Assembly: GCA_026770705.1 (NCBI GenBank)
Contig: JANJGN010000301.1
Span: 62,001-126,000 of the forward strand
Length of the DNA stretch: 64,000 bases
Origin: Isurus oxyrinchus
Taxonomy: Eukaryota
Direction of reading: 5' to 3'
Position 1 is the stretch's first letter, and each line of letters opens with the position of its first letter. The notes beneath the pieces were generated by a model. The model was not told the DNA's origin and made no database searches. It was given only the letters and a program-made list of their open reading frames with translations. Position numbers and translations under genes: made by a program. Shown here piece after piece: positions 1,490 through 63,935 of this stretch.

Positions 1490-2190
1490 ACATTTCAACA
1501 CACCACCCTGCTGTCATGCCCACTTGTCCATTCTTGGCTTGCTGCAATGTTCCAGTGAAGCTCAATGCAAACTGGAGGAACAGCACCTCATCTTCCGAAA
1601 AGGCACTTTACAGCCTTCTGGACTGAATATTGAGTTCAACAAGTTTAGATCATGAACTCTCTCCTCCATCCCCACCCCCTTGCCAATTCCCGTTTTTTCC
1701 AATAATTTATATAGGATTTTCTTTTCCCACCTATTTCCATTATTTTTAAATGTATTTCCATCCCTTGTTTTATCTCTACCTTGTAGTCTATTTCGATCCC
1801 TTCTCCACGCTCCACCCCCACTAGGGCTATCTGTATCTTGCTCGTCCTGTTTTCTACCTTTAATGTCACCTATTAGCACATTTCTTAGATAATACCACCA
1901 CCGTCAACATCTCTTTGTCCTTTTGTCTGTGACATCTTTTGGCAATGTCCACCTATCACTGGCCCTCTATCCAGCTCTACTTGTCCCACCTACCCGCCCA
2001 CCCCCCGCCTTAAACCAGCTTATATTTCACATCTCTTCTATTTTTCCTTAGTTCTGTTGAAGAGTCATACGGACTCGAAAAGTTAACTGTGTTCCTCTCT
2101 GCAGATGCTGTCAGTCCTGCTGAGTTTTTCCAGGTATTAGTATTTTTATTTTTGTTTTGGATTTCCAGCATCCGCAGTTTTTTGCTTTTA
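1490..2190 (+). mobile_element. 5'-truncated Penelope-like retroelement (GIY-YIG C-terminus plus 3' UTR/pLTR)
   Basis: ORF 1467-1655 (HFNTPPC...EEQHLIFRKGTLQPSGLNIEFNKFRS) closely matches the C-terminus of ORF 23525-25285. The 3' UTR matches the reverse complement of 22955-23520. Confidence 0.85.
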
Positions 2191-4225: not shown

Positions 4226-5041
4226 CAGAGAGTTTTCCAGTTAGCGCTGAGCAGAGGGCGCACTCACACCGTCAAAACAGAAGGAATGGTTCAAATCCCA
4301 CTGTGAGATCAGGTGGACCTTGTTAAAAGATCATTAAACAATTAACATTCATCAAGAACAACTGTTTGGATTAGTTTGCCGTTGAAATTTGAATTTATAA
4401 TTAAAGCGAGCTTTACAAATGGCAATGTAATGCTTCAATTCCACTTTTCTTTATCGACGCCTTTCCCTGCTGACTTGTTTCTTATCATCCCGTCTCCATT
4501 CGGTAAACAGAATTGTGCACAGTTTCTTCTTTTAGTCTTTAATTTAAGTAGATGGTCCTTTGCTACTTCTCTGTCCAGTAATTCAGAATCACTCCAATCC
4601 CGATACCTGTAGATTTAGCCCTGGATTCAAGAGAGGTTACTCATTAAACTATTGCGTATTATTGAATAATATAACAATCCTGATACTCCTGTCCCGAACT
4701 TACTCGTATCCAGTATGGAATGAATATGGAATGACCAAAACCCTCTTGGAGAGTCAGAGTTACATCCTTTTCGAAGGAGACATTACTCCTGAGTTCACTT
4801 CTTTGCAGATGAATCCGACTGTGTGATATCACTACCTGCTATAACCCCGCCCACAGCATCGGTTTGCTGTTGTTAGTATCACCCCCTTCCTTGCCGTTTA
4901 TTATTGGAGAATTTGCTGCCTTTGTTCTCTGCTTGGAATTGATTGGATGAGCAATTCAGTGGGGGCTCGGGGTGGGATTCTGTACTCCTGCTCCGACAGA
5001 GGGTTTCCCTTGACTTCACAGTTACAGACACAGCGAACATC

Positions 5042-5543
5042 ATGCAGAACCGTCTTACACTGCTCCTCATCATTTTACCCCTTCTCAGTAAGTGTTCACG
5101 CCCACGAAAAATTCATTATTCCCAGAAACACCCTCACCCAGGTGCCACTGGTTGTGAATTGATGATGATGTTAACAATAACGATGTCTCTTATTATTATT
5201 TTATGTTTGAATGAGCCGCCAAGACAAAGTGGAACAGTGAAAAGGTTGCTGAAGAGGAAAGCAATGTCACCCTAAACTGCACCTTAAAAACAAACGTTGG
5301 TAATCCTACTGTGCTCTAGTACAGTCCGCACCCCGGGGAGCCTCCACAGTACATGTTTTATATTACTGGAGGGATAATAAACCGCAACCCGGACTTGTCT
5401 GCCCGCTTCAATCCTGCATTTGATAAATCAGCCAAGATCACCGAGCTAACGATCAGTAAGGTCGTGATCTCTGACACCGCCGTGTATTTCTGTGCCATGA
5501 GACCCACACTGCTGTGGATAAAAGCGGACTCCGTACAAAAACC
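5042..5543 (+). pseudogene. TCR alpha/delta V pseudogene (family A) with intact 23-RSS
   Basis: Leader 5042-5087 MQNRLTLLLIILPLL|gtaagt. W41 codon is TAG, with an FR1 frameshift and a damaged acceptor. FR3 ELTISKVVISDTAVYFCAMRP. RSS CACACTG (5505-5511), 23 bp, ACAAAAACC (5535-5543). Confidence 0.9.
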
Positions 5544-44059: not shown

Positions 44060-44098
44060 AGGTTTTGTACAGCTCTTTCCCTGTTCTTTATCACTGTG
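44060..44098 (-). other. Second, tandem 23-RSS downstream of the supporting V-delta
   Basis: CACAGTG (44092-44098), 23 bp, ACAAAACCT (44060-44068), within a ~57-bp tandem duplication. Confidence 0.85.
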
Positions 44099-44117
44099 TC
44101 TAATCCCTCCATGTTCA

Positions 44118-44462
44118 GGTTTTTGTATGGCACCCTCCGTGCTCTGTATCACTGTGCTGTGCGCTGACTCAGTGCACAGTAATACCCAGCGGAATCACTC
44201 AGTTGTAGTTTGGAGATATTTAACCGGCTGATTTTCTCGGCAGGATCGATAGAAGCAGAACTTCTCCCCCCAGCAGTGTTTTCTTTATCCTCTTCTCCTG
44301 AAGCATGTCTCTGAAGCAAGTAATCCGGAGCCTGTCCTGGGGACTGACGGTACCAGTGTACTGTGTACTGACAGACACCTGAATACTCACAGCTTAAAGT
44401 AACGGTGTCACCCACAGCAGAGGTTTGGACAGGCGGATTCTGGGATACAATGGAACTGGAAT
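44118..44462 (-). CDS. TRDV: NAR-TCR supporting V-delta (leaderless, extra CDR1 Cys) with consensus 23-RSS
   Basis: Acceptor ttctcctgcag|. Open exon 44157-44462: (D)SSSIVSQNPPVQTSAVGDTVTLSCEYSGVCQYTVHWYRQSPGQAPDYLL...DSAGYYCALSQRT. Non-canonical Cys at 44371-44373. No leader exon seen; the phase-1 acceptor fits the J donor at 47077. RSS CACAGTG (44150-44156), 23 bp, ACAAAAACC (44118-44126). Confidence 0.9.
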
Positions 44463-47077: not shown

Positions 47078-47169
47078 CGGCTATGACAGTCAACATCGTA
47101 CCGGATCCATCCACAGAATCATATTTCCACCACAGTAACACTGCTCTCAGTCTCCCCGGCACAAGAACC
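47078..47169 (-). other. NAR-TCR J segment with 5' 23-RSS
   Basis: J 47078-47130 WKYDSVDGSGTMLTVIA|gtaagt has a GxGT motif and a phase-1 donor. RSS GGTTCTTGT (47161-47169), 23 bp, TACTGTG (47131-47137). Confidence 0.9.
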
Positions 47170-47483: not shown

Positions 47484-47990
47484 GCTATTTGTTCAGGCCT
47501 TTTCCTCTGTGATTAACCAATGTTGTACCTGTATTGAGCTTTACAGTAATAGTTGGCCGTGTCTTCAACTCTCACGTCCCGAATTTCCAGTGAAAATGTC
47601 TTTCCTGCTTTATTCACCGACACAACAAATCTTCCTCCGCCGGAGATCCGTTCCCGCTCTGTCCCGGTCTGGGTTTGTTTGAAGAAATGTCCATTTTGTA
47701 AATAATAATAACCATAATAAACACAGGTGATGGTGAGAGACTGACACTCCTTCCTGGTCACCGCTGCTGGGGTCTGTGTCACTGACTGACTGAAAGAGCC
47801 TGGAAATTAAACAGAGAGAGTGTAATGGACCATCAGAGCCGAACCACGGAGCGGGGTTAAACCCGCAGACATTGTCTGTAATTGGGATGGACTCGAGCAG
47901 CTTTATATTAAACCCACAACATGTCGGTTTGTTTGATCGGTACTCACGGGGTATACAGACACACAGGGTGAAAACAAGGAGGATTCCCAT
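47484..47990 (-). CDS. NAR-TCR V (IgNAR-like V domain), apparently germline-joined to D, with 12-RSS
   Basis: Leader 47948-47990 MGILLVFTLCVCIP|gtgagt. V exon 47512-47799: SFSQSVTQTPAAVTRKECQSLTITCVYYGYYYLQNGHFFKQTQTGTERERISGGGRFVVSVNKAGKTFSLEIRDVRVEDTANYYCKAQYRYNIG*. It has the VNAR-type short FR2-CDR2, YYCKA and an extra FR1 Cys (47744-47746). RSS CACAGAG (47505-47511), 12 bp, ACAAATAGC (47484-47492). Confidence 0.88.
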
Positions 47991-59249: not shown

Positions 59250-59826
59250 GCTTACTGTCCGGGTTCTTCAATTTTATCTGACATTGTGTCTCGCTGCACA
59301 TGAGTTGACTGCCCGGTCCTCCACACCCAGGCTGCTTACATTGAGGTAATCGGGCTGTGCAGCCTGGTCAGCAGCAGCCAGATATCGTTCTCAGATTTTC
59401 AATCCCTTCAGTGCTGCTGCTTTGCTAATGATCCAGCTTGGAGGCTGTGCCGGTTTCTGCCAATACTGTTACATGATGTATAAATACAGGGTTTTATATC
59501 CGCAGTCTCACTTCACCAAACCCCCTTCTGACACGGCCAGTGTCACCAGAGACTGTGTTACTGCATCTGCACATAGTCCACCTGTGAAGTTAGAGGAACA
59601 AAATCCAGGAGGTTAAACCGGATCGATCTAAACCTGTGTTTAGCTGTATGAGTTTATGTAAATTCCCACCTACCAAACTGTCCATAATATGCATATACAG
59701 GATCGCTAACAACATTGAATACCTGTACAAGCTGCAATTGGATCAATGTGTTAATTTGTTTATTTTAATGATGAACGTAATCCAGCATTGACAGTCCAAG
59801 ACAGCTGTCAGTATTATCAGAAATAT
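59250..59826 (-). pseudogene. TCR alpha/delta V pseudogene (family B)
   Basis: GLCADAVTQSLVTLAVSEGGLVK*DCGY...QKPAQPPSWII...YLNVSSLGVEDRAVNSCAAR has several stops and leader ATG>ATA. RSS CACAATG (59282-59288), 23 bp, ACAGTAAGC (59250-59258). Confidence 0.85.
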
Positions 59827-60838: not shown

Positions 60839-61770
60839 AGTTGTTGTACGAGGGTTCCGCTCGGTTCCATCGCTGTGAGACTCTGTGCACACTAATAGAC
60901 CGTGGTGTCAGACAGCTGCAGCTCCGAGATGGTCAATCGATACAACTTGCCTAACTGGTGGACTGTATCAGAAATCCGGTCCTGAGCGAAATCTGCCTTC
61001 AGTTCACAACTGCCGCTCTTGTGCCTGCAGATTGCAAACTCGGACTGTATGCCTGGGCCTTGTTGGTACCAGAAATAGTAATAAACGTCGTCAGTATAGC
61101 TGCAGGTTAAAATGACATCTTTTCCCACTGCCTGTGAGGATTCGGCGTGAGTAACAGAATCTCCATGGATCAGATCTGGAAGACACAGTTAATGAAAACG
61201 GAAACCATCGACTAAAAGTTCGACTAAAAAGAACTGACACTGAAAATTTTGCTCATCTTCTCCTTCTGACAGTGAATTCCATATTCTAAAGGAGAAAGAA
61301 GTTTCTCATGAATTCCCCTTTGGGTCTCTCTGTGACTCTTATTTATGAGCCAAAGTTTTGGAATTCTCCTCAACTGTATGCATCTTTCCCATATCTTCCC
61401 GATCGAAACCCCTCCTCATGTTAAAGAGCTCTATCCGGTTACCCATCAGTCTTCTGATTACTCGAGGAAATACGCCCAGTCTCTTCAGTGTTCTTCGAGA
61501 GTTATTATCTCTCAATTCTGGCATCAGCATTGTAATTAATTTTTACATTGTGTTTTATGTCCCTTTATTCTTCTTATAAGGAAGATACCAAGTCTGCAGA
61601 CAATAACTTAAGTGCACTCTAACGTAGGTCCAGCGCTTGATTAACATGAATTCCCCAGTCTTTTTCTTCATATTTATCCCTCCGGAAACTGAAGCCTTCT
61701 TTAAAAATGTTTTAAATTTCTTGCCGACAACGAATGTCACCCAGATCACAGCGAGAACGGAGATTCGCAT
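60839..61770 (-). pseudogene. TCR V pseudogene (family C), single nonsense codon
   Basis: Leader 61725-61770 MRISVLAVIWVTFVV|gc. V exon 60878-61175 is open except TAG just before C104 (VY*CAQS). RSS CACAGCG (60871-60877), 23 bp, ACAACAACT. Confidence 0.9.
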
Positions 61771-62460
61771 TGCAGCTGCTCCGGGGTTCGGGGGACAATT
61801 TGTGCGTCAGAAACACGCAGAATATGAAACAAGAAAAAGCTGAGAACACTGGCTGCTTCTGATCTGATGTCACTCCCTGCAGAACCTGCCAAAGGAAGAG
61901 CTGAGATCACTGATCTCATTGGTCTGATGTCAATTCCATAACCACAAATCTATTGATTTCCGAGAACTAAGACTTTAACGGCGCATTCTGCTGAGCAGAG
62001 AGGCCAGTAAATATAGACCCTTGATGACTAATTGATCTGAGAGATTGCTTGATATCTAATTGACCATCGCCTCAAAAAGTGCACTTGTTCAATGTGGATG
62101 AAGATATTCACGCCCCCGTCCAACGAAATAATAGAATTATTTTTCCCCAATAAAAACTAATCAATCCACCCATCCACCAATCCATCCTGGGTCCACCTGA
62201 GTTAACGGTTCTGTAAGAGCAACACAGAATTATCAGTTATAGGAACTCCACTTCTGAGAGCTTTCTTTGCCTCTGTTGGCAAATCGATATCCGCGTAATT
62301 TGGGAGCTATTTGCCCTATAAAAGGCGGATGAAGATAAGTTTATATATTTCCCAAATCTGCTTCTTTGTGGATTTGGACAAGGACAAACAGAACAATAAA
62401 ACAGCGGTAAATAGACCTGTCTGTTTTGCTCCTCTGGAACCCGGGATCAAAAGCCGCTGA

Positions 62461-62781
62461 AGTTGTTTTACAAGATTCTAACTCTGTGCCTCACTGCACA
62501 GTAATAAACCGCCTCGTCCTCCACACTCAGTTGGCTGATTTTGAGGTAACCGTTCTTTTGAGACTGGTCAGCAGCCGCCAGATATCGTCCTGAAATTTCA
62601 TCTTTCTTCAGTGCTATGATATTGGTAATAATCCAGTTTGCAGGCTGTGCCGTCTGCTGCCGATACCATTGCATGTAGTACATATTCCGTTCTCGATATT
62701 CATAGTCTAACTGCAAAGAACCCCCTTCTGACACCGTTATTGCAACCGGTGCCTCTGTTACTGGATGTGCGCATAGTCTGC
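62461..62781 (-). pseudogene. TCR V (family B), open frame, C23>Y, with 12-spacer RSS
   Basis: HPVTEAPVAITVSEGGSLQLDYEY...QWYRQQ...LKISQLSVEDEAVYYCAVR, with no clear leader donor. RSS CACAGAG (62482-62488), 12 bp, AAAACAACT (62461-62469). Confidence 0.85.
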
Positions 62782-63591
62782 CTTTAAGGTAGAGGAACGA
62801 AATATCAAGCGGTTAAACTGTGTTGATCAAAATTTGTTTGTGCTGTGTGAGCCCCGTCCCGCTGAACTGCTGATCCAAACAATGCCAAACAGAGAGCAGC
62901 GGCATCAAACTGCTCAGTAACAGGGGAGGCAAGGCGGGTCAGAGCGACGGCAGCAAACGGAATGTGTGGGCGGCGCTAGAGCAGTAAATGTTGTCACACA
63001 TCGGACCCATTTGTAAGGAGCTGAATTCAATAATAATGTCTCCTTCGAAAGTGATATATCTCTGCCTCTCGATAATAACTGCTGTTCTTTCAGATTTATT
63101 CCAAATTGGAGGCGAGCAGGGTGAACACGTGTGTCAGCATTAGTAAATAATTCAATAATAAATTGAGTTTTCATTGGCTAAACCGTTTAAAACTGGGACA
63201 GAGCCTATGGACGGCTGGGTTAGCATAGTTCTGAGTAAATGTTCAACGAAGTATCAAAGGTTTGAAACCTTTAAACCAAAGTCCGATGAAGGAGATGTCT
63301 GAAAATATGGATAACGCGTGGAGACAGGGCGGGAGAAGGATCAAATCGGCAGGAAAGGCATCCAAAGAGAAAGAAGTGACGTAAGGCACCACAAATTGGT
63401 CCGTAATGTTAATGTTATTACATGTGTAATTTGAAATCGCAAATTAATATTACTGTTGAAATTGTCATTTTTTATTCTTGTAGAAGGCTGTGTTTTTTTG
63501 CAACTTTTCTCACTGTGGAGGCGGGATTATTGCTCCTGTTTTTCGGTTTGAGAGCGCCCTCTGCTGACCACTGACTGGAACTCTCAGTGTG

Positions 63592-63935
63592 GGTTTTTGT
63601 ACGGTATCCGCTATATCTCTGCAGCAGTGTGGGGTCCATCGCACAGAAATATACCGCGCTGTCAGAGATCAGGATGTTACTGATCATGAGTTCGGTAATC
63701 TTTACAGTTTCATTAAACATTGCTGAAAACCGATCACTGATGTCCTTATTTCTGAATGGTATCCCTCCCAGAATATAAAGCATGTACTGTGGAGGCTGCT
63801 CGGGGCGCTGACTGTACCAGTACACATAACGGTTAGAAGTGCTTGTTTTCAATGTGCAAGCTACTGTAATATTACTTTTCTCGTCAAACGTTATTGCAGC
63901 AACCGGCAGTTCCACAATGTCTTGGTGGCTCCAGT
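63592..63935 (-). CDS. Potentially functional TCR alpha/delta V exon (family A); leader outside window
   Basis: Open exon 63632-63935 with C23, YWYSQ and DSAVYFCAMDP. RSS CACACTG (63625-63631), 24 bp, ACAAAAACC (63592-63600). Confidence 0.88.

Follow-up and report, generated by a model that had tools for sequence, protein, structure and literature searches.

Two questions are raised by a V exon near the end of the window, by which we mean the whole 64,000-nt stretch of DNA analysed here: how a TCR V segment came to carry an RSS with a 12-nt spacer when its siblings carry 23 nt, and whether the altered signal serves any purpose. The exon (62781-62489, minus strand) directly abuts the heptamer (62488-62482) of this focal RSS (62461-62488), which continues on the same strand with a 12-nt spacer (62481-62470) and a nonamer (62469-62461). 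The exon has an open frame, an AG acceptor and a Pfam V-set match of 2.9e-15; a protein search gave one match, a catshark protein at 61% identity, and a PDB search gave generic antibody V matches only. From the V-set exon, the catshark match and an NAR-TCR cassette at 47990-44060, we infer that the window belongs to a shark TCR alpha/delta region and that the exon is of alpha/delta type. In our view the focal V is probably a leaderless TCR V pseudogene, the signal of which changed class from 23 to 12 by chance and would be cut rarely at most.

The focal signal matches the consensus weakly, with one mismatch in the heptamer and three in the nonamer. Three sites of this quality are found in the window, against a mean of 1.02 and a maximum of 4 in 50 shuffles, and since such sites arise about once per shuffled window, the assignment of the RSS rests on position and homology. 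Setting the nonamer at a spacer of 11 or 13 nt does not improve the fit. A genome-wide search with a 12-RSS pattern gave 191 hits, a set biased by the pattern itself.

The genome contains six copies of the focal V, 95–100% identical to one another. Four are on contig C26, and the two small contigs that carry the others may be alleles. The copies sit in a duplicated cassette of about 98% identity, which the longest comparison traces over at least 33 kb, and all six, on three contigs, have the 12-nt spacer in unrearranged form. The same spacer length is seen in a gap-free contig over 62411-62596, with one difference, from another sample and study under the same organism label (run X5), and in one over 62396-62513, with six differences, from a related species, organism B (run X17). 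Although no contig spanning the focal RSS was found among the matches listed for a further run (X3), an assembly error as the source of the short spacer is thus hardly credible, and we reject it. The 12-nt spacer and the 11-nt shortening described in the sequence-only reading are therefore real, and the look at related sharks that it proposed turned up the short spacer in organism B as well, from which it follows that the 11-nt deletion likely predates the split of the two species. Its account of an open V frame, an intact CAC and a lost first Cys was also accurate for the window copy. The CAC is present in all six copies, while the change of the first Cys codon (62704-62702) to Tyr is private to the window copy, as is the change at nonamer position 9; the first Cys is retained in the other five copies, and the Trp and second Cys are present in the window copy itself.

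The same reading called this a conventional TCR V, which it is not, as its leader exon is missing. The leader of this family is a short hydrophobic exon that lies roughly 240 nt before the acceptor, and it is recognisable, though in some cases mutated, in all 26 other distinct family loci (24 by the leader pattern, with L078 and L089 identified separately). It is absent from all six focal copies, and the focal V has no leader exon with ATG and donor of its own. Homology ends about 70 nt above the acceptor, and this remnant of the leader intron (62782-62851, minus strand) is all that is left of the 5' region typical of the family. Over the 5.2 kb upstream of the focal V there is an 88% match to three syntenic sister cassettes; the V of each has kept its leader, Cys and 23-RSS, and at the equivalent of 62849-62852 each has an extra 1,714–1,718 nt that includes the leader. 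This position is the junction of a deletion of about 1.72 kb, with 3-nt microhomology, which removed promoter and leader exon and fused the intron remnant to the promoter-side block of another V family (62852-63160, minus strand; 70% identical to 4657-4963, which precedes the V at 5505). Both the 11-nt and the 1.72-kb deletions are found in all focal copies. Comparison with the same three sister cassettes points to a likely second deletion, of about 2.17 kb, with its junction at 62154-62156, downstream of the RSS.

A substitute for the lost leader is not apparent in the neighbourhood. The nearest one on the same strand belongs to the upstream V at 63592-63935 (minus strand, 24-nt spacer); it lies just beyond the window end and is frameshifted in all six copies, so that leader borrowing from this V was rejected. 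No good donor was found between that leader and the focal V, the sole upstream ATG frame stops before the focal exon, and an in-frame Met first appears at codon 33. On these findings the earlier suggestion of a chain with two V domains is not supported, the focal V having neither a leader exon nor an ATG before that codon. With the leader deleted in all six copies and no usable substitute, the focal V has a lesion that blocks a productive chain, and joined to any J it would lack a signal peptide. The neighbouring Vs at 60877, 59288, 53912 and 50759 all contain stops. The upstream V at 63592-63935, which is also found at the start of L037, has an open V frame alongside its frameshifted leader in all six cassette copies. 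Slightly beyond the window end (L037, about 1640–1970, plus strand) lies a paralog of the focal family in head-to-head orientation, with a leader, an open frame and a 22-nt spacer, the 3' end of which is the edge of the duplicated cassette.

As for the origin of the short spacer, the sequence-only reading took as its reference the paralog at 59250-59581 (minus strand). This paralog does carry a 23-nt spacer, but at 72% identity and with stops in its frame it is a poor reference, and when the 59288 paralog is aligned with the focal RSS even the best gap placement leaves 10–12 mismatches. The 18 sibling loci at 83–87% identity, which carry 23-nt spacers and represent 10 distinct signals, leave 5–7 mismatches, with the gap starting at RSS offset 5 or at offsets 8–12. 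The two placements tie on mismatches: a gap at offset 5 would account for the heptamer change as well, but no repeat is found there, and a gap at offsets 8–12 coincides with a direct repeat of 11-nt period. This repeat is of 4 nt in the spacers of L095 and L084 and of 3 nt in that of L097, while L081 has a different 3-nt one and L086, L093 and L082 have none. It is likely that such a short repeat in the sibling spacers templated the deletion, through slippage or microhomology repair, in which case the exact loss of 11 nt needs no selection and the switch of class would have been an accident. Spacers of 22 and 24 nt represent other accidents of this kind in the locus. Copying of the focal signal from the 12-RSS of the NAR V was rejected, the two spacers being unrelated and the focal spacer aligning with those of its own family. 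In three frameshifted family members (L007, L012, L016), an independent 10-nt deletion has removed the heptamer at the end of the V exon.

All six focal copies are changed, compared with the siblings, at position 6 of the heptamer and at positions 2 and 5 of the nonamer. This amounts to 3 of 16 sites, as against 1 of 160 in the 10 distinct sibling signals (Fisher p=0.002), or for the nonamer alone 2 of 9 against 1 of 90 (p=0.02); these p values are rough, because related signals are counted as independent. The comparison is of the six copies in the window's genome with the siblings, organism B being compared at sites other than nonamer positions 2 and 5. Among the six copies, three sites segregate in the 28 nt of the RSS where 0.9 are expected (P=0.057), and conservation of the signal by selection is not seen in these data. 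Mammalian assays rate position 5 of the nonamer as critical (PMC212687) and describe a purine at the sixth heptamer position as disfavoured more than tenfold (PMC9723617), and RSS activity is said to be scaled globally by the nonamer sequence (PMC12205992). However, mammalian rules may overstate the damage, since the putative signals of the NAR-TCR cassettes, known here from sequence, deviate in a similar way: 29 of 30 NAR J signals (L041–L070) have C or G in place of A at nonamer position 5, and the heptamer of the NAR V signal is the same as that of the focal V in all 13 close cassettes. The NAR V nonamers of L041–L070 have T at position 6, which along with position 5 is called critical in mammals.

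The exon gives a mixed picture. Between the focal V and the sister V, dN is 0.122 and non-coding divergence 0.119, as compared with 0.036 and 0.088 between two intact sister Vs, and in a three-way comparison the focal V has 19 unique residues, the others 3 and 4. On the focal branch dN/dS is about 0.57, with dS also high, and the exon tree places the focal V beside the sister clade with a support of only 61%. Invariant residues are changed at 5–8 positions in intact members when clade c or d is left out and at 8–11 in the focal V, ranges by which this test separates poorly for those two clades, though well for two of the four. Within the exon, the six copies differ by 9 synonymous and 5 replacement changes (binomial p=7e-4) and by two indels. 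The replacements are as expected from neutrality (5 against 7.0 from the non-coding rate), whereas the synonymous differences are about five times the non-coding expectation (9 against 1.9, P=0.0002). Gene conversion from the sampled paralogs finds no support as a source of this excess, since 9 of the 14 minor alleles are absent from all 17 of them. The synonymous excess is the main evidence for a frame that may still be in use. The frame is open in five of the six copies, and acceptor, frame and both Cys are intact in three; each of the other three has a further lesion (the Cys to Tyr change, a frameshift, or a 12-nt deletion before the second Cys).

If the signal were cut, with what could it join? 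Under the 12/23 rule it cannot pair with a D or J that has a 12-signal, as had been argued, and the geometry of that argument is right. The partner proposed for it, the NAR-TCR J (47130-47078, with its 23-RSS at 47131-47169, minus strand), lies on the same strand with its signal facing the focal RSS, and a join would delete 15,358 nt. The focal V lacks the 23-nt spacer of a functional conventional V and faces a signal of the complementary class. By orientation, pairing with 23-signal Vs would be deletional for those on the opposite strand (5505, 9237) and inversional for those on the same strand. The J has a much nearer partner in the NAR-TCR V (leader and V with a long 3' tail, 47484-47990, minus strand), whose own 12-RSS (47511-47484) is 381 nt away, 40 times closer than the focal signal. 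The cassette is completed by a supporting V (44060-44462, minus strand), which is leaderless and has a CDR1 Cys and two stacked 23-RSS (44156, 44098); an extra Cys is carried by both the NAR V and the supporting V and is missing in the focal V. In all 30 NAR cassettes examined (L041–L070), V and J are about 380 nt apart with no separate D between them, and the 12-signal behind the V passed the scan in 21; the long 3' tail of the NAR V may be a germline-joined D. In the window cassette this tail has an in-frame stop just before the heptamer. The window NAR cassette has 13 close copies, five of which have the focal V upstream, at 15.2–15.4 kb from the NAR J in the four measured and in the same layout in the fifth. 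Upstream of the focal V there is no NAR V-J within 10 kb (five copies) or within 30 kb (the window's contig).

This arrangement invites the idea that the signal has been kept as a deleting element: the fused foreign promoter would open chromatin, the 12-signal would join the NAR J, and the NAR V would be excised, turning off the NAR-TCR of the cassette. Class and orientation relative to the J are correct at 15.2–15.4 kb, the CAC is intact in all six copies, a promoter-side block is directly upstream, the short spacer is common to organism B, and a leader is not needed for such a role. Nevertheless, we consider a deleting-element role possible but unlikely, as the signal is degraded and the own 12-signal of the NAR V is 40 times closer to the J. 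The focal signal decays faster than those of the siblings and still varies among copies; the focal V is upstream in only 5 of the 13 close NAR cassettes; one copy (L002) has lost its downstream NAR unit; the sister cassettes have no NAR V-J within about 21 kb; and none of the six copies is joined in the germline. Among the contig matches listed for the bulk sequencing runs, no joint at this signal is seen either. Quite unlikely, too, is the more elaborate version, by which a dead V turned into a 12-class signal under a borrowed promoter, competing for the NAR J and deleting the NAR V as an off-switch that predates the species split.

The exon might instead be translated as part of a multi-V delta chain, once it has joined the NAR J and is spliced from a distant leader or from an NAR V-J some 42–44 kb upstream. 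The synonymous excess among copies would fit this, as would an acceptor and frame with both Cys in half of the copies, and for the four copies on C26 there are indeed same-strand NAR V-J units 42–44 kb upstream. But the own leader is gone, the nearest one is frameshifted and the upstream ATG frame stops short of the exon; the focal V lacks an extra Cys with which a supporting V could pair, the supporting V of the upstream unit would need to be skipped, and the replacement rate fits neutrality. We regard translation in such a chain as very unlikely. Identity of the focal V as an NAR-TCR supporting V was also rejected, on its missing CDR1 Cys, its position and its signal class. The pseudogene reading, which we favour, has to contend with the 9:5 synonymous excess, a dN/dS of about 0.57, a frame open in five of six copies, the sharing with organism B and the state of position 5 in the NAR J signals. 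On this reading, the loss of promoter and leader would have left the V without a surface protein, selection on the signal, whose heptamer and nonamer have drifted, would have lapsed, and any RAG cutting would be rare and unselected. The V has also been copied inside its cassette, which is 33 kb or longer.

TCR alpha/delta V pseudogenes with a lost leader or a faulty RSS are a class recognised by IMGT. The focal V resembles them in being a V-set exon in an alpha/delta-type array, with a deleted leader, an off-consensus signal and neighbours with stops; it differs in that its spacer error yields a length of exactly 12 nt and with it the other legal class, and in that its frame is open in most copies. 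Deleting elements such as the kappa-deleting element and delta-Rec/psi-J-alpha are non-coding signals that remove a coding unit and need no leader. Use of the focal non-coding signal would likewise remove a coding unit, but this putative signal, known from sequence, is decaying and is found in 5 of the 13 close cassettes only. In the NAR-TCR description of PMC1845163, the supporting V-delta has no leader and is marked by a CDR1 Cys. The focal V is similarly leaderless, with its splice acceptor intact, and sits in an NAR-TCR cassette; unlike the supporting V-delta it lacks a CDR1 Cys, is not directly preceded by an NAR V-J, and has a 12- rather than a 23-signal. It belongs to a family with leaders, the true supporting V being 44462-44157. 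In Anolis, the V segments of TCR-epsilon have 12- and 23-nt spacers, a pattern attributed to inversions with matching J (PMC11754216). There, as here, both V signal classes occur in one locus, but here the cause is a spacer deletion on a leaderless V, not an inversion. A literature search extending to papers other than Criscitiello 2006, Deiss 2019 and Ott 2021 yielded no published case of a shark TCR V whose spacer had changed from 23 to 12; further background is given in PMC3457774, PMC5931798 and PMC7696796.

A pseudogene is of little weight in itself. What this one displays is a simple route by which a 23-signal can become a 12-signal, by way of a short spacer repeat of 11-nt period. Receptor loci differ in how signal classes are assigned to segments, and spacer deletion is one way in which such flips could begin. 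If used, the signal would act on NAR-TCR as a deleting element. Were the off-switch reading true, an RSS polarity flip would have been caught in the act of evolution, along with a home-grown control of NAR-TCR for a two-V receptor, the NAR V of which is antibody-like.

The surroundings of the sixth focal copy bear on the wider layout of the locus. It departs from the window at the equivalent of 51976 and runs into an Ig heavy-chain C1 exon (L023:448-702). IgH and TCR alpha/delta are described as linked in sharks (PMC12227049), with which a C1 exon beside a focal copy agrees, and on C26 the TCR V cassettes and IgH clusters appear to be interleaved.
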